Shown piece by piece: positions 25,452 to 43,118 of a stretch of 43,172 bases of DNA. Where the stretch lies: IMG/VR virus record IMGVR_UViG_2675903609_000006; one strand, 5' to 3'. The stretch comes from a virus (lineage: Duplodnaviria > Heunggongvirae > Uroviricota > Caudoviricetes). The translations under genes were made by a program, and so were the position numbers. Under the pieces are notes generated by a model. It did no database searches. It saw nothing but the letters and a program-made list of their open reading frames with translations, and had not been told where the DNA came from. The stretch's first letter is position 1, and every line of letters starts with the position of its first letter.

Positions 25452-25778
25452 TTACTCCTTAGAGCCACCAAACTTATTACCGATTACTCGCATTGCAGCC
25501 CCACGAATAGCATCAACACCGATCAGCCCCACACCACCACCAATGGCAACAGATAGTGATTTAGGCCATCCGACATACTCAAGAGCGGATGCAAAAGTCA
25601 GCGTCAGAGCGCCACAGAGTAGAATTTCGAGTGTTTTTCGCTTCCAGCCGCCACCACCGCCAAAATAGGCAATACGTAAACCAACCATAACAATCGACAT
25701 AATCACTGCGCCCAGCGGTGTGTCTCCACGCCACCAGCTCTGGAACAACTCCAGCCAAGTATTTGGGTTATGAGGCAT
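25452..25778 (-). CDS. Holin (putative, three TM segments)
   Basis: 108 aa, three hydrophobic helices, immediately upstream of the endolysin. Confidence 0.6.
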   Translation of the reverse strand: MPHNPNTWLELFQSWWRGDTPLGAVIMSIVMVGLRIAYFGGGGGWKRKTLEILLCGALTLTFASALEYVGWPKSLSVAIGGGVGLIGVDAIRGAAMRVIGNKFGGSKE

Positions 25779-25921
25779 TTGTAGTTATCTCTCACCTCGC
25801 CAATACAGGAGGTGCCAATTGAGGGAATACCACGTACCGCACATCAGAAGCGGAAACGTCAAAGAAGCCGAGTCAATGGATAAATGTGGGATAGACCAGG
25901 ACCAACGAATCCCCAGCCCAA

Positions 25922-25952
25922 GAAACGACAAAACCCGCTCGACGGCGGGTTT
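25922..25952 (-). terminator. tR'-like terminator upstream of the lysis cassette
   Basis: Hairpin AAACCCGC-TCGACG-GCGGGTTT followed on the minus strand by a T-rich tract. Confidence 0.45.
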
Positions 25953-26042
25953 AAGCTGTGTGGCGAAGTAACCACTCTTAACACAGTAATCTAGAAAATG
26001 CGGACCGCGTTAGTGATTTTTTCAACTTTTTGATTTATCTTA

Positions 26043-26070
26043 TTGAACACAAGAAACCACTGCCTATAAA
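26043..26070 (+). promoter_or_regulatory. Sigma70-like promoter for the Q-lysis cargo module
   Basis: TTGAAC (26043-26048), 16-nt spacer, TATAAA (26065-26070); an AAGGA ribosome-binding site precedes the ATG at 26140. Confidence 0.4.
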
Positions 26071-26139
26071 TCATATCAACCCAAACCATAAAAACCAAAA
26101 AATCAAATGATTACATTAACTAGATAAGGAACAAAGTTA

Positions 26140-27225
26140 ATGAAAGAAAGCCGCAGCAAGGTCATTCAATATAAACGTGCAGTCATCCCTAATTGCACAG
26201 CAACGCTTCAACAGATCATAGAATCTATAATTTCTGAAAATGGCGCAGCCTATAAAGTTAGCGCAAGAAGAGAACAGATTAACCCCTCCGATAGCAATAG
26301 TGGATTTAGAGTGGTTAACCGCAGCAGCACTTTCAAGACAGTGTTATTCGGGCAACTTATTTTGTTTGAACAAGGTAAAAGCCAAACACTTATGACAATC
26401 GCTGATGATGTCAATTATTATGACATCAATGCTATAACATCGAAGCAAATTAAATTAGCCGAAGACGAAAAAATAAGTGAAGCTGAAAAACAAAAAATAA
26501 CACGAGAATTTATTGATTCAATACTTTACTTTGGGATTCGTGATAATCATGTGATGATCGTCCAATCACCGGCTCTAAGGACTAAAGACATAGAAAGCCA
26601 TCTTAATTGGTTAATCCATTCATTTAGCACTATTTTTAATGGTGACGACTTCCTTGTACTTCAAGATAAACCAACTGAAGACACCATAAAAAAAATGCAT
26701 GAAAGTCCAGTCAAGAAAATAAATTTCGGCAGTATCCCAATCAAAAATTCTGATTCTGAAGATGTAGTTAAAATAAATAATATAAGTAACACAAACGACC
26801 TCCCCACAACAATAAAAGAACAGGTCGAAAAAGTTAAGAAAATAAAATTCATGCCAACTGGTAAAGGTGGCGATATTATAAAAGCTGCTTTTGGCGAAGC
26901 ATGGTTTAATAATTTACAACTGGAAGATTCTCTTGATGAATCCAATTTACAAGTTAATCTAGAAATAACCTATTTCCGCAAGACAAACAAAGATGGTCAA
27001 CGTGTACTCGATACTTTAGCAACTTCACTCAGAAATATAGACGATGAAGATATTAGTATAAACCTTCAAGGTGGTGGCATAATTAAAGGCAGTGATTTAA
27101 AACTATCCGGTAAAGTAAACGTCCAATATAACAATGGACTTATTGATGAAAATGATTTATATTTACAAATGCACAAATGGCTGACTTCAAAGGTTCAAAC
27201 TGGAGAAGTAAAAGTTAAAAACTAG
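26140..27225 (+). CDS. Hypothetical soluble protein (361 aa), first gene of the Q-lysis cargo module
   Basis: Long AT-rich ORF on the strand opposite to flanking phage genes; Lys/Asn/Asp/Glu-rich; no family recognised. Confidence 0.7.
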   Translation: MKESRSKVIQYKRAVIPNCTATLQQIIESIISENGAAYKVSARREQINPSDSNSGFRVVNRSSTFKTVLFGQLILFEQGKSQTLMTIADDVNYYDINAITSKQIKLAEDEKISEAEKQKITREFIDSILYFGIRDNHVMIVQSPALRTKDIESHLNWLIHSFSTIFNGDDFLVLQDKPTEDTIKKMHESPVKKINFGSIPIKNSDSEDVVKINNISNTNDLPTTIKEQVEKVKKIKFMPTGKGGDIIKAAFGEAWFNNLQLEDSLDESNLQVNLEITYFRKTNKDGQRVLDTLATSLRNIDDEDISINLQGGGIIKGSDLKLSGKVNVQYNNGLIDENDLYLQMHKWLTSKVQTGEVKVKN

Positions 27226-27563
27226 AACCAACAGGAGGCGGAAATGAGCTTCTTTAAATTTATTATAAGATTCTTATCCGCCTTCGCTTTTGGGTTTGCA
27301 ATATTTTACTTTGCATCTAGAAAAATTGACTTAAGTGGCATATCTACTCCATGGTCATTAATAACCTTATTAGCATTCCCTTTCAGTTATTGTATCGCAG
27401 CCTTTTTTAAAGTTTCTGAAGCCGACGAAAACACATCACTATCAGATAATGAACTAAGAAGATTACGACCGATAATTGATGCAAAAAAAAGACATCTTGG
27501 ATTTCTTATCTTTTTTTATCTTATTGCTGCTTTTTCAGGAGCAATTGGGGTAATGACTCCAAC

Positions 27564-28067
27564 TTATTGATAGTGTTTTATGTTCAGATAATGCCCGATG
27601 ACTTTGTCATGCAGCTCCACCGATTTTGAGAACGACAGCGACTTCCGTCCCAGCCGTGCCAGGTGCTGCCTCAGATTTAGGTTATGCCGCTCAATTCGCT
27701 GCGTATATCGCTTGCTGATTACGTGCAGCTTTCCCTTCAGGCGGGATTCATACAGCGGCCAGCCATCCGTCATCCATATCACCACGTCAAAGGGTGACAG
27801 CAGGCTCATAAGACGCCCCAGCGTCGCCATAGTGCGTTCACCGAATACGTGCGCAACAACCGTCTTCCGGAGACTGTCATACGCGTAAAACAGCCAGCGC
27901 TGGCGCGATTTAGCCCCGACATAGCCCCACTGTTCGTCCATTTCCGCGCAGACGATGACGTCACTGCCCGGCTGTATGCGCGAGGTTACCGACTGCGGCC
28001 TGAGTTTTTTAAGTGACGTAAAATCGTGTTGAGGCCAACGCCCATAATGCGGGCTGTTGCCCGGCAT
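27564..28067 (-). CDS. insB: IS1 transposase InsB
   Basis: 167-aa product recognised as IS1 InsB. Confidence 0.9.
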
Positions 28068-28261
28068 CCAACGCCATTCATGGCCATATCAATGATTTTC
28101 TGGTGCGTACCGGGTTGAGAAGCGGTGTAAGTGAACTGCAGTTGCCATGTTTTACGGCAGTGAGAGCAGAGATAGCGCTGATGTCCGGCGGTGCTTTTGC
28201 CGTTACGCACCACCCCGTCAGTAGCTGAACAGGAGGGACAGCTGATAGAAACAGAAGCCAC
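27986..28261 (-). CDS. insA: IS1 InsA
   Basis: 91-aa product recognised as IS1 InsA ([32 protein letters not shown]...). Confidence 0.9.
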
Positions 28262-28516
28262 TGGAGCACCTCAAAAACACCATCATACACTAAATCAGTA
28301 AGTTGGCAGCATCACCAGCAATTGGTATGTTCGCTATTTCCAGAGAGTCGATAGTTTATCTATATTTTATATCTGCTTGTGGAGGAGGCATTGCTGCTGC
28401 AATGTATTCTTTTTTCTTTATCAGCTCAATAAACAGCGAAATACAGAGATTTAAAAGCATCTTATTACACAGAGCTGAAGCGAATAAAAAAACGAAAGAA
28501 TTTATAGACTCATTAA

Positions 28517-28548
28517 ACAAAAAGGCGGATTGAAATCCGCCTTTTTGT
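28517..28548. terminator. Bidirectional rho-independent terminator shared by Q and the cargo module
   Basis: Hairpin AAAAGGCGGAT-TGAA-ATCCGCCTTTT flanked by A-runs and T-runs, between convergent stops at 28533 and 28554. Confidence 0.6.
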
Positions 28549-28553
28549 TTTCT

Positions 28554-28931
28554 TCAATCCATTTCTAATCTAATATCCAACATTGAAAGACAACCTTCGA
28601 TAAATCCTTCAGCCATTTTAATCTCAATGCGTATAAGTTTCTCGTCCTTTTTCTTTTCTTTAGCAATTTTTCTCTTAGAAAGACCATACAAATAATGTGC
28701 TACTAGTAACGAATGCTCATAAGGTTTTTTCTTCTTCAGCCGAGCAAGGCACCCCTCAATGATTAATCCGTCGGCATCAGTACATGAGAGTCTGTTTTTA
28801 CCTGTTTGTGGTAAAAGCCCTTTAAATCCTGCTGCGATTGGAGAATAGTCAACGCCTGAATTATCACTAGCAGCCCATCCCCCCCAACGCTCAAGAACCA
28901 TCTGAATATCACGCATCAAATTTCTCCACAA
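28554..28931 (-). CDS. Late-gene antiterminator Q (QuuD-like)
   Basis: 125 aa resembling recalled E. coli DLP12 QuuD (MRDIQMVLERWG.WAA...IAAGFKGL...ARLKK...ALDIRLEMD). Confidence 0.75.
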   Translation of the reverse strand: MWRNLMRDIQMVLERWGGWAASDNSGVDYSPIAAGFKGLLPQTGKNRLSCTDADGLIIEGCLARLKKKKPYEHSLLVAHYLYGLSKRKIAKEKKKDEKLIRIEIKMAEGFIEGCLSMLDIRLEMD

Positions 28932-38854: not shown

Positions 38855-39204
38855 TGGAGCCATACAGCCTCACACTCGATGAGGCCTGTCATTTTCTCAA
38901 GATATCCAGACCGACTGCCATTAACTGGATACGCACAGGGCGTCTTCAGGCAACACGCAAAGATCCCACTAAGAATAAATCTCCTTACCTCACAACACGA
39001 CAAGCCTGCATTGCGGCTCTTCAGTCTCCGCTGCATACTGTCCAGGTGAGCGCGGGTGATGGCATAACAGAGGAAAGAAAATGTCACTCTTCCGCAGAGG
39101 TGAAATATGGTACGCCAGTTTCACATTGCCGAACGGTAAAAGATTTAAACAGTCTCTTGGAACAAAGGACAAAAGGCAGGCGACAGAACTCCATGACAAG
39201 CTAA
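38854..39204 (+). CDS. Excisionase-like HTH protein (3' end uncertain)
   Basis: ATG at 38854 preceded by AAGAGG; N-terminal HTH-like segment; frame overlaps the int start by ~120 nt. Confidence 0.4.
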
Positions 39205-40244
39205 AGGCTGAAGCATGGCGGGTCAGCAAACTTGGTGAAATACCTGATATAACGTTCGAGGAAGCGTGTGTCAGGTGGCTTGAAGAGAAAGCACATAAAA
39301 AATCACTGGACGATGACAAAAGCCGGATCGGATTCTGGCTTCAACATTTCGCAGGAATACAACTAAGAGACATTACTGAATCAAAAATTTATTCAGCAAT
39401 GCAGAAAATGACGAACCGGCGTCATGAGGAAAACTGGAAACTCAGGGCAGAATCATGCAGAAAAAAAGGGAAACCTGTTCCAGAATACACGCCAAAACCA
39501 GCGTCCGTTGCAACGAAGGCTACGCATCTTTCATTTATAAAGGCCCTACTAAGAGCCGCAGAGCGTGAATGGAAAATGCTGGATAAGGCACCAATTATTA
39601 AAGTGCCTCAACCAAAGAATAAACGGATCCGCTGGCTGGAGCCCCATGAAGCACAAAGGCTGATTGATGAATGTCCGGAGCCATTAAAGTCTGTTGTTGA
39701 ATTTGCACTGGCAACAGGCTTAAGACGCTCGAACATCATCAACCTTGAATGGCAACAAATAGATATGCAGCGCCGGGTGGCATGGATAAACCCGGAAGAG
39801 AGTAAATCAAACCGCGCAATTGGCGTTGCGCTGAATGATACTGCATGTCGCGTATTGAAAAAACAAATCGGGAATCATCACCGTTGGGTATTTGTGTACA
39901 AGGAAAGCTGTACCAAACCAGACGGAACGAAAGCGCCAACAGTAAGGAAGATGCGGTATGACGCAAACACAGCCTGGAAAGCGGCGCTGAGACGGGCTGG
40001 TATTGATGATTTCAGATTTCACGACTTGAGACACACCTGGGCAAGTTGGCTGGTTCAAGCCGGAGTCCCGTTGTCAGTTTTACAGGAAATGGGAGGCTGG
40101 GAGTCTATCGAAATGGTTCGTCGATATGCTCACCTTGCACCTAATCACCTTACCGAACACGCACGGCAAATAGACTCGATCCTGAACCCATCGGTCCCAA
40201 ATTTGTCCCAGTCAAAAAATAAGGAAGGTACTAATGATGTGTAA
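39081..40244 (+). CDS. int: Tyrosine integrase (site-specific recombinase)
   Basis: 387 aa with catalytic motifs ([24 protein letters not shown]...RYAH); ends 15 nt before the tRNA. Confidence 0.9.
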
Positions 40245-40258
40245 CTTATTGATTTTAA

Positions 40259-40304
40259 TGGTGCCGATAATAGGAGTCGAACCTACGACCTTCGCATTAC
40301 GAAT
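40259..40304. repeat. Proximal attachment-site core (3' 46 nt of the tRNA)
   Basis: Identical to 433-478. Confidence 0.8.
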
Positions 40305-40334
40305 GCGCTGCTCTACCAACTGAGCTATATCGGC
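40259..40334 (-). tRNA. thrW: tRNA-Thr (anticodon CGT) - integration target
   Basis: Reverse complement reads GCCGATATAGCTCAGTTGGTAGAGCAGCGCATTCGTAATGCGAAGGTCGTAGGTTCGACTCCTATTATCGGCACCA (76 nt, CCA end at 40259). Confidence 0.9.
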
Positions 40335-40448
40335 CCTGAAAGGACATGTTCACGAACGTGAATCACGGTGGACAAGGTTAAAACTAACCGGGCGATGCGT
40401 CAATGGCCTTGTGAATCAAATGGCTACTTTTGCATCACCCGGTTTTAT

Positions 40449-41765
40449 TTACGCACGAATGGTGTAATCACCAATGCCGATCCACTTGTAAGTGGTCAGT
40501 GCTTCCAGCCCCATTGGGCCACGCGCGTGGAGTTTTTGTGTGCTTACCGCCACTTCCGCACCCAGACCAAACTGGCCGCCGTCGGTAAAACGCGTAGAGG
40601 CGTTAACGTAAACAGCGGACGAATCCACTTCGTTAACAAAACGCTGGGCGTTGCGCATATCGCGGGTCAGGATCGCATCGGAGTGTTGTGTGCCGTGTTC
40701 ACGAATATGGGCGATGGCATCGTCAAGATCGCTGACGATTTTGACGTTCAAATCTAATGACAGAAACTCATCGTCATACTCTTCGGCTTTAACCGCCACC
40801 ACCTTCGCAGGGCCTGCCTGCAACTGTGTCAGCGCAGCTGCATCTGCGTGTAATGTCACGCCGCTTTCCGCCATTTGTTTGCTTAATGCGGGCAGGAAGC
40901 TATCGGCGATGTTTTTATTCACCAGCAACGTTTCAACCGTATTACATGTGCTCGGACGCTGAGTTTTCGCGTTGACGATCACTTTTAATGCTTCAGCGAT
41001 CTCTGCACTTTCATCAACGTAAATATGGCATACGCCTATACCACCTGTGATCACCGGGATTGTCGACTGTTCACGGCACAGTTTATGCAAACCAGCGCCA
41101 CCACGCGGGATCAGCATGTCGATGTATTTATCCATACGCAGCATTTCACTGACCAGCGCACGGTCAGGATTATCAATCGCCTGCACGGCACCCGCCGGTA
41201 AGCCACAGGATTTCAGGGCGTCCTGAATCACCGCCACCGTTGCCGCGTTAGTGCGACAGGTTTCTTTACCACCACGCAGGATCACCGCATTACCGGTTTT
41301 CAGGCACAGCGAAGCGACATCAACCGTCACGTTCGGGCGCGCTTCATAAATCACGCCAATAACCCCCAGCGGTACGCGACGACGCTCAAGACGCAGGCCG
41401 CTGTCCAGTACGCCGCCATCGANNNNNNNNNNNNNNNNNNNNNNNNNNNNNNNNNNNNNNNNNNNNNNNNNNNNNNNNNNNNNNNNNNNNNNNNNNNNNN
41501 NNNNNNNNNNNNNNNNNNNNNNNNNNNNNNNNNNNNNNNNNNNNNNNNNNNNNNNNNNNNNNNNNNNNNNNNNNNNNNNNNNNNNNNNNNNNNNNNNNNN
41601 NNNNNNNNNNNNNNNNNNNNNNNNNNNNNNNNNNNNNNNNNNNNNNNNNNNNNNNNNNNNNNNNNNNNNNNNNNNNNNNNNNNNNNNNNNNNNNNNNNNN
41701 NNNNNNNAGAGTTGCGCTAATTTATACGAGGCTTGCTTCGCGGCAATGCCCATTTGTTCCAGCAT
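40449..41765 (-). CDS. proA: Gamma-glutamyl phosphate reductase (interrupted by an N-run)
   Basis: N-terminus [19 protein letters not shown] and C-terminal conserved region; N-run 41423-41707 inside. Confidence 0.9.
41423..41707. other. Run of N (285 nt) - gap or masked sequence
   Basis: Literal n characters. Confidence 1.
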
Positions 41766-41776
41766 CGGCCAGCTCC

Positions 41777-42943
41777 TTAACGGGTAATCATGTCATCACG
41801 GTGAACGGCAACCGGGCCGTATTCATATCCCAGTATTGCATCAATTTCTTGCGAGTGGTGTCCGGCAATACGGCGTAATGCATCGCTGTTGTAACGACTG
41901 ACACCGTGGGCGATATCGCGACCTTCGAGGTTGCAAATGCGGATGACTTCACCACGCGAGAAATTGCCAGTAACGCTTTTAATGCCTTTCGGCAACAGGG
42001 AGCTGCCGCGTTCCAGAATGGCGGCCGTNNNNNNNNNNNNNNNNNNNNNNNNNNNNNNNNNNNNNNNNNNNNNNNNNNNNNNNNNNNNNNNNNNNNNNNN
42101 NNNNNNNNNNNNNNNNNNNNNNNNNNNNNNNNNNNNNNNNNNNNNNNNNNNNNNNNNNNNNNNNNNNNCCTGGGCATGGAACAGCGTACCGACGGAAATG
42201 CCTTCCATCACATCACCAATAACGCCCGGCTTGCTGCCCGCGGCAATAATGGTGTCGATACCCGCACGGCAAGCCACGTCAGCGGCCTGCAATTTAGTAC
42301 TCATGCCGCCAGTTCCGAGGCCTGAAACGCTGTCACCGGCAATCGCGCGCAGTGCGTCATCAATGCCGTAAACATCTTTAATCAGTTCTGCCTGCGGATT
42401 TCTGCGCGGATCAGCGGTATACAAACCTTTTTGATCGGTCAGCAGCAACAGTTTATCGGCACCCGCCAGAATCGCCGCCAGCGCAGAAAGGTTATCGTTA
42501 TCGCCGACCTTAATCTCTGCCGTAGCGACAGCATCGTTCTCATTGATTACCGGAACGATATTGTTATCGAGCAACGCACGCAGGGTGTCGCGGGCGTTCA
42601 GGAAGCGTTCACGGTCTTCCATATCAGCACGGGTCAGCAGCATTTGCCCGACGTGAATGCCATAAATCGAAAACAGCTGTTCCCACAGTTGAATCAGTCG
42701 ACTCTGCCCTACCGCCGCCAGCAGTTGTTTCGAGGCGATAGTCGCTGGCAGTTCCGGGTAACCCAGGTGCTCACGTCCGGCGGCGATCGCGCCCGACGTC
42801 ACAATAACAATCCGATGCCCGGCGGCATGTAACTGCGCGCACTGGCGAACAAGTTCAACGATATGGGCACGGTTCAGACGGCGCGATCCGCCTGTTAGCA
42901 CACTGGTGCCGAGTTTTACCACCAGCGTCTGGCTGTCACTCAT
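41777..42943 (-). CDS. proB: Glutamate 5-kinase (interrupted by an N-run)
   Basis: Start at [19 protein letters not shown] (ATG at 42943), PUA-domain C-terminus ending DDMITR; N-run 42029-42168 inside. Confidence 0.9.
42029..42168. other. Run of N (140 nt) - gap or masked sequence
   Basis: Literal n characters. Confidence 1.
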
Positions 42944-43118
42944 GATTCTCTGCCATTCAATTTTAGGAAAAATGATATCAAACGAACGTTTTAGCAGGAC
43001 TGTCGTCGGTTGCCAACCATCTGCGAGCAAAGCATGGCGTTTTGTTGCGCGGGATCAGCAAGCGTAGCGGCAGTTGTTTACGCTTTTATTACAGATTTAA
43101 TAAATTACCACATTTTCA

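Follow-up and report, generated by a model that had tools for sequence, protein, structure and literature searches.

The predicted late regulatory switch of Shigella phage SfIV and the cargo module that separates it from the Q gene

The stretch of DNA considered here, called the window, is the 43,172-nucleotide virus record IMGVR_UViG_2675903609_000006, whose region from the antiterminator gene Q to the holin gene is 99.7% identical to KC814930, the Shigella flexneri serotype-converting prophage SfIV. The late genes of SfIV lie on the minus strand, and along this strand the order is a DUF968 gene, Q, a two-way terminator, the 3' piece of a small cargo gene, the insertion sequence IS1, the 5' piece of the cargo gene, a gene for a protein of 361 amino acids (aa), a gap and the holin gene. 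The cargo module (26140-28533) has a low GC content and occupies the strand opposite to the late genes. The gap of 361 base pairs (bp) at 25779-26139 is the exact interval between the ATG codons at 25778 (holin gene) and 26140 (first cargo gene). Judged from its sequence, this gap (26139-25779, minus strand) very probably holds the SfIV late regulatory switch, namely the late promoter (pR'), the Q-utilisation site (qut) and the terminator tR'. The placement is proposed because the corresponding segment abuts Q in relatives that lack the cargo, a -10 element and a terminator are conserved in it, its palindrome co-varies with the Q protein and its geometry is that of phage 21. The features that bear on it are the following.

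28554-28916, minus strand: Q antiterminator gene, 120 aa from ATG, of the Q21/QuuD type, termed class A.
28515-28550, both strands: two-way intrinsic terminator that serves both Q and the convergent cargo operon, its 16-bp stem bordered by runs of A and T.
25999-26031, minus strand: upstream half of the putative late promoter, an A-rich tract (26031-26015) followed by a palindrome specific to the Q class.
26010-25999, minus strand: the palindrome ACGCGGTCCGCA, proposed as the Q-binding element.
25988-25983, minus strand: best -10 candidate, TACTGT; an overlapping alternative, TAGATT, lies at 25993-25988.
25960-25983, minus strand: 24-bp core TGTTAAGAGTGGTTACTTCGCCAC, with the last base of the -10 candidate, the predicted start, the initial transcribed region and a 5-bp hairpin.
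About 25976 (range 25982-25975), minus strand: predicted start site.
25921-25952, minus strand: tR'-like intrinsic terminator with an 8-bp GC-rich stem, a 6-nucleotide loop and a T-rich tail.

The open reading frame (ORF) of Q, which starts at 28931 as called mechanically, encodes a recognised member of the Q family (PF06530, E=3.8e-53, plus phrog_79) that shares 72-85% identity with its counterparts in mEp390, cdtI and PPyecE and weakly matches the Q21 structures 6P18/6JNX (E=2e-3). The terminator hairpin begins at most 4 nucleotides (nt) past the Q stop and overlaps the stop (28533) at which the last cargo ORF of the plus strand ends. Its predicted folding energy is -22.8 kcal/mol on the minus strand and -22.3 kcal/mol on the plus strand (z = -7.0 and -8.3), none of 200 shuffled sequences folded as well, and an Rfam search (E up to 1) returned sub-threshold matches only. 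Nothing promoter-like adjoins Q, either on reading the sequence or in a consensus scan, and the promoter core lies 2.5 kilobases (kb) from the Q stop. A preliminary description of the locus had claimed that Q ends at a terminator abutting the convergent cargo, that the only non-coding space for a late promoter is the gap upstream of the holin gene and that a tR'-like hairpin lies at 25922-25952. The 16-bp hairpin at 28550-28515 and the ATG-to-ATG interval bear out the first two of these claims, and for the third the scan calls AAACCCGC-CGTCGA-GCGGGTTT (25952-25931) a terminator on the minus strand, its T-rich tail extending to ~25921.

Comparison with relatives reveals how Q and the gap came to be apart. 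In the cargo-less PPyecE_EH1910 and in the Stx2a phages Stx2_14040 and Stx2_EH2201, a homologue of 26031-25930 is found directly behind Q. It starts 9 nt before the Q stop, which is 38 nt from the core in these relatives, and ~13 unmatched nt lie between the end of the Q homology (window position 28558) and the start of the segment (26031). Q proteins encoded next to cargo end in LEMD or LEME, whereas those without cargo are 6 codons longer (DWLLKK) and run into the A-rich tract of the promoter (28554-28575 compared with 2943-2965 of locus L001); the last ~6 codons of SfIV Q are replaced relative to the cargo-less relatives. The insertion point therefore lies inside the ancestral Q reading frame. 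Since the segment abuts Q where the cargo is missing, the 2.5 kb at 28557-26032 represent a clean insertion that clipped the last Q codons and displaced the regulatory segment. The comparison thus supports the proposal of the preliminary description that the late promoter, Q site and tR' are located in the gap and that the cargo lies between Q and its presumed target.

An alignment of 15 named phages and 120 viral contigs yielded 45 distinct upstream variants and 51 distinct leader variants. The upstream variants have an A-rich tract ~40 nt upstream of the core, and their -10 hexamer carries T at the first position in 42/45 and A at the second and T at the last in 45/45, with the middle three positions free. 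This TAnnnT conservation is the signature of a sigma-70 -10 element, here a predicted one. By analogy with phage 21, TAGATT could be the -10 and TAAGAG a pause element. This reading is kept as an alternative only, as the 45 variants favour TACTGT and class C lacks a -10-like hexamer where TAGATT would lie. Two further candidates for the start site were set aside. The reference start of PMC7918800 does not serve as pR', for its reporter primers, mapped on K-12, put the start ~350 nt upstream of the core, and it was taken, from the cited title, to belong to an RpoE-dependent promoter. StxS, the pR' leader RNA of Sakai, derives from a Q933W-type promoter of a different class with a 258-nt leader, and its start is not transferable.

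The 24-bp core is nearly invariant in loci that were found without using it as a pattern and is common to phages of all Q classes; the 120 contigs were picked by this block, and their conservation of it is not independent evidence. Core and palindrome occur in one copy each in the window and not beside Q (chance expectation for the core, 0), and a search for the core sequence in paper texts returned nothing relevant. The predicted leader runs from ~25976 to ~25925, about 50 nt (48-60), and consists of a small 5' hairpin and the terminator, with a folding energy of -19.6 kcal/mol (z = -3.0); it has no Rfam match (E up to 1). Its first ~16 nt (25975-25960) form the small hairpin GUGG-UUACUUCG-CCAC, which is highly conserved across Q classes. 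The few substitutions leave its base pairing intact, as with the G-U wobble of DLP12-type sequences, and conceivable roles for it are pausing, RNA stability or a small RNA function. The tR'-like hairpin folds with -12 kcal/mol, a value matched by 3 of 200 shuffles. Over the 51 leader variants its loop, and sometimes the entire hairpin, is swapped, but nearly all of them retain a GC hairpin with a T run behind it.

Sequences upstream of 25984 are class-specific, and from 25983 on they are common to all classes. Such a mosaic boundary at 25984/25983 would be expected of a promoter that carries the Q specificity and a leader that is generic. Upstream of it, the palindrome is GCGGTCCGC in class A (SfIV), GCGTACGC in class B (SfII and some Stx phages) and TTTACGTACGTAAA in class C (DLP12/434B/PA-2); further inverted repeats specific to Q subclasses, TGGAATTCCA and TTGTTATAACAA, were found upstream of the -10 (loci L001-L138). 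The Q proteins of 11 named phages fall into three groups with 72-100% identity within and 45-58% between groups, and these groups coincide with the palindrome classes in 11/11 cases. Palindrome class equals Q class also in 85/85 viral contigs in which a Q gene was located upstream of the core (20/20, 20/20 and 45/45, none discordant), and rarer palindrome variants pair with correspondingly divergent Q proteins. The match is independent of spacing: it holds where Q and the core are 3-38 nt apart as well as where unrelated cargo of up to 2.9 kb intervenes. This co-variation is the strongest indirect evidence that the palindrome may be the site of action of Q. What has been observed directly comprises the sequence features and their conservation, the clean junction of the insertion and the co-variation.

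Some results weigh against this placement of the switch or against its details. Linkage between Q and the palindrome could by itself raise the co-variation, and there is redundancy among the viral contigs, 45 of which are DLP12-like. The consensus scan lists no promoter in the gap, and the class A -35 region (TAACGC/AACGCG) is a poor sigma-70 match. A -35-like hexamer (TTGCGG, TTGTGG, TTGTGT or TTTACG) is present 16-17 bp upstream of the -10 in phiP27-type and TTGTGTTATAACAA-type sequences and, less well, in class C; classes A (SfIV) and B have none at this distance. The two overlapping -10 candidates make the start uncertain by about 8 nt. The pause-like AAGAGT/TAAGAG at 25980-25974, which resembles both TAAGCT of phage 21 and the lambda pause element AACGAT, would be transcribed only if TAGATT is the -10, and permits no confident assignment. 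Finally, Q21 recognises direct repeats (PMC6606751), unlike the inverted repeat proposed here as the Q-binding element. None of the -10 ambiguity, the pause element, the weak -35 and the inverted repeat affects the placing of the switch in the gap and not beside Q.

The poor -35 of classes A and B, with the palindrome overlapping the -35 position (about -32 to -24 under the preferred -10), could also mean that Q of this lineage is a conventional initiation activator bound at the palindrome, and that the promoter is Q-dependent instead of constitutive and terminated. An inverted repeat is typical of dimeric activators, and the DLP12 Q was reportedly once described as a 'Q-like transcription factor'. 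This explanation is very unlikely: the protein clearly belongs to the PF06530 Q family and resembles Q21, and the terminator 25-45 nt past the start, conserved in nearly all variants, would be purposeless without antitermination. It is likewise highly improbable that the hairpin at 25952-25931 is a mere insulating terminator and that the real late promoter lies between it and the holin gene (25920-25790). These 140 bp are conserved in SfII (92%) and in PA-2-type phages (75%) and contain TTGACT- and TTGACG-like hexamers, but they offer no properly spaced -10 and no scan match, and a promoter there would account neither for the -10 signature nor for the co-variation with Q class upstream of the hairpin nor for the phage 21 geometry.

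The textbook arrangement, in which Q and pR' are adjacent, would put the late promoter and the Q-loading site right behind Q (28553-28300), with the polymerase reading antisense through IS1 and cargo and the cargo situated between qut and tR'. A minus-strand promoter-like site does exist at 28309-28282; it was rejected as the late promoter, being inside the end of IS1 and upstream of insA, and an orthologous prophage has no IS1. What lies behind Q is a strong terminator and then the antisense of a cargo ORF, and the segment that abuts Q in the cargo-less relatives is present at 26031-25930 only. Such an arrangement appears exceedingly improbable for SfIV.

With the switch placed in the gap, late expression would proceed as follows. 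In the absence of Q, RNA polymerase would start in the gap, synthesise the ~50-nt leader and stop at tR'. Q, a diffusible protein made ~2.6 kb away, would load onto the polymerase at the gap site, and the modified polymerase would pass tR' and transcribe the genes for holin, lysis and morphogenesis. From the sequence we infer promoter activity, the start site, binding of Q to the palindrome, termination and read-through in the gap. SfIV was isolated as a viable, lysogenising phage (PMC3851460); with exactly this layout and IS1 in place, its late genes are therefore expressed. As for the origin of the layout, a self-contained two-gene module, of low GC content, on the opposite strand, with an apparent promoter of its own and a terminator shared with Q, was inserted at the very point where the final Q codons met the upstream border of the putative promoter, and IS1 jumped into its second gene at a later step. 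The slot would lie outside the Q-modified late transcript and be shielded from the Q transcript by the terminator, which may be why it is favoured for lysogen-expressed cargo. The module comprises the following features.

26140-27225, plus strand: large cargo gene, 361 aa, predicted RexA-like fold.
27244-27548, plus strand: 5' piece of the small cargo gene, which encodes a membrane protein.
28317-28533, plus strand: 3' piece of this gene (rexB-like membrane protein), severed by IS1.
26043-26070, plus strand: candidate promoter of the cargo operon, TTGAAC-16-TATAAA, read from the sequence and unlisted in the consensus scan.
27549-28316: IS1, 768 bp, with insA and insB on the minus strand (PF03811, PF12759, PF03400) and canonical ends with terminal inverted repeats.

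The candidate cargo promoter stands back to back with the putative late promoter, two divergent promoters thus being ~70 bp apart in the 361-bp gap. Joining 27244-27548 to 28326-28533 restores an ORF of 170 aa with four hydrophobic segments. The 5' part, which is 26% identical to Stx2a_1447 gene 23, matches phrog_16807 at profile positions 18-105 of 179 only, as expected of a truncated gene. Neither SfIV cargo protein has a match in Pfam or PADLOC. Homologues of the 361-aa protein occur across Enterobacterales, Aeromonas and Vibrio and are all annotated as hypothetical; a profile built from 43 homologues matched no PDB sequence, and RexA was pointed to by the fold search alone. Fold and architecture, the only basis for this assignment, suggest that the SfIV cargo may be a Rex-like two-gene exclusion module whose membrane component has been inactivated. 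The module has the features of a moron: a candidate promoter and terminator of its own, an atypical GC content (32-38%, compared with 50-58% in the flanking phage DNA) and a position between sequences that are adjacent in PPyecE and the Stx2a phages.

The IS1 inside the cargo module, which the preliminary description had not mentioned, interrupts the small cargo gene at codon 102 and is flanked by a 9-bp target duplication, AGCAATTGG, with copies at 27540-27548 and 28317-28325. It is 99.5% identical to the IS1 copies in phage P1 and others. The SfIV genome paper regarded orf47-49, situated between Q and the lysis cassette, as a moron and proposed that orf48 and orf49 had been imported by the IS1 transposase; the late promoter was not located (PMC3851460). 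In Escherichia coli CFSAN061762 (locus L139), an IS1-free pair of 361 and 170 aa occupies the same slot with its second partner intact. The target duplication and this IS1-free orthologue argue that IS1 arrived second, into a module already present, which corrects the published view.

The preliminary description implied that the layout is unusual, an implication that did not hold up. Among 96 contigs with both Q of this lineage and the core, the two adjoin in only 6, and 620-2920 nt of cargo intervene in the other 90; the main intervening ORF is on the opposite strand in 85/90. Cargo between Q and the core was found also in the phages cdtI, mEp390, mEp460 and SfII, and a 111-bp query covering core and terminator (25925-26035) matches 2572/5426 complete E. 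coli genomes, about 47%. Cargo between Q and pR' is thus the norm for this Q lineage, not an exception. Cargo of the stx kind downstream of tR' uses a different slot, and SfIV breaks no rule in this respect. The slot cargo of the 120 contigs comprises at least 32 protein clusters. Its occupants include Kiwa (KwaB, E=2e-150, with a membrane partner), TIR-TM, PDC-M53, PDC-S20 (a KAP-NTPase candidate), PDC-S42, a DUF6731 pair, porins and Rex-like pairs (example loci L028, L133, L100, L009, L002 and L134), and a DNA methyltransferase-like ORF beside a 596-aa ORF with nucleotide-binding motifs, both read from sequence only. A limited literature search found no description of the Q-pR' junction as a cargo slot. 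It is conceivable, although we hold this only tentatively, that the junction of the QuuD/SfIV-type lineage is a dedicated and heavily used slot for lysogen-expressed cargo, much of it anti-phage defence, and that its Q proteins recognise short inverted repeats overlapping the -35, unlike the direct repeats of Q21.

For SfIV itself little changes, as Q is diffusible and its separation from its target needs no new mechanism. The analysis provides a defined model of late promoter and terminator for a Q lineage that had no mapped pR' and that includes DLP12 of K-12 as well as some Stx1a and Stx2a phages in which pR' drives the toxin. The Q-pR' junction emerges as a recurrent slot for opposite-strand cargo, and the conserved Q and pR' core could anchor the mining of prophage defence genes.

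The genes next to Q and to the gap are the following.

29929-28934, minus strand: DUF968 gene, preceding Q.
25452-25778, minus strand: holin gene of the lambda family (PF05106, E=5e-24; phrog_126), the first late gene.
25448-24972, minus strand: endolysin gene, followed on the same strand by spanin, HNH and terminase genes.

At one end of the window lie gtrA, gtrB and the type-specific gtrIV (680-3268), and at the other the integrase gene followed by host proA/proB (39081-43030), the usual setting of a serotype-converting prophage. A second insertion sequence, of IS3 type with an rve integrase core, is found in the tail-fibre region at 3934-5086, adjoining a tail-fibre assembly gene; it was named ISEhe3 in the SfIV paper (PMC3851460).

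Among known systems, phage 21 is the one whose mapped pR' has the order and scale of the SfIV segment. In the annotated phage 21 record, the -35 starts 7 nt past the Q stop, transcription starts 42 nt past this stop, the pause element covers +2 to +8 and the terminator ends ~50 nt after the start; the Q-binding element is located between -35 and -10 (PMC6606751). Both phages have a Q of the same Pfam family, a Q-specific element in the promoter spacer region and a leader of ~50 nt ending at an intrinsic terminator (both predicted in the case of SfIV), and lysis genes beyond. They differ in the distance of the promoter from the Q stop (2.5 kb in SfIV compared with 7 nt in 21), in the Q element (a short inverted repeat compared with two direct TGAGCA repeats), in the weak -35 of SfIV and in the Q proteins themselves, which are ~26% identical.

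Closer in layout is DLP12 of K-12, with the order quuD, convergent nmpC with IS5, core and essD, and with the same 24-bp core and terminator between the start of the porin gene and the holin gene. Phage 434B has the same order as DLP12, Q being upstream of convergent porin cargo, and the PA-2 record comprises the porin gene lc, the core and the lysis genes only and contains no Q gene. Unlike SfIV, these phages have class C Q, where Q is present, the palindrome TTTACGTACGTAAA and a porin as cargo in place of a Rex-like pair, and in K-12 the inserted element is IS5 in nmpC, not IS1. The O157 Stx1a phages (Stx1_14040), Stx2a_1447 and the Shigella phage SfII likewise show Q, two to three opposite-strand genes, the same core and, behind it, stx or lysis genes. 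Stx2a_1447 and SfIV carry homologous cargo (33% and 26% identity). These phages differ from SfIV in their class B Q and palindrome GCGTACGC, and the SfII cargo is the PADLOC candidate PDC-M53.

The SfIV cargo resembles lambda RexA-RexB in combining a protein of predicted RexA-like fold with a putative four-helix membrane partner. In contrast to lambda RexAB, it has no sequence similarity to the lambda pair and no PADLOC RexAB match, its large protein has 361 aa instead of 279 aa, the pair lies between Q and pR' and not beside cI, and the membrane gene is broken by IS1. The module also matches a moron in the sense of Hendrix and Juhala, but IS1 was inserted into it and was not its carrier. Taken together, SfIV, a phage already described in print, adds one more instance of an arrangement that is common and in part classic.
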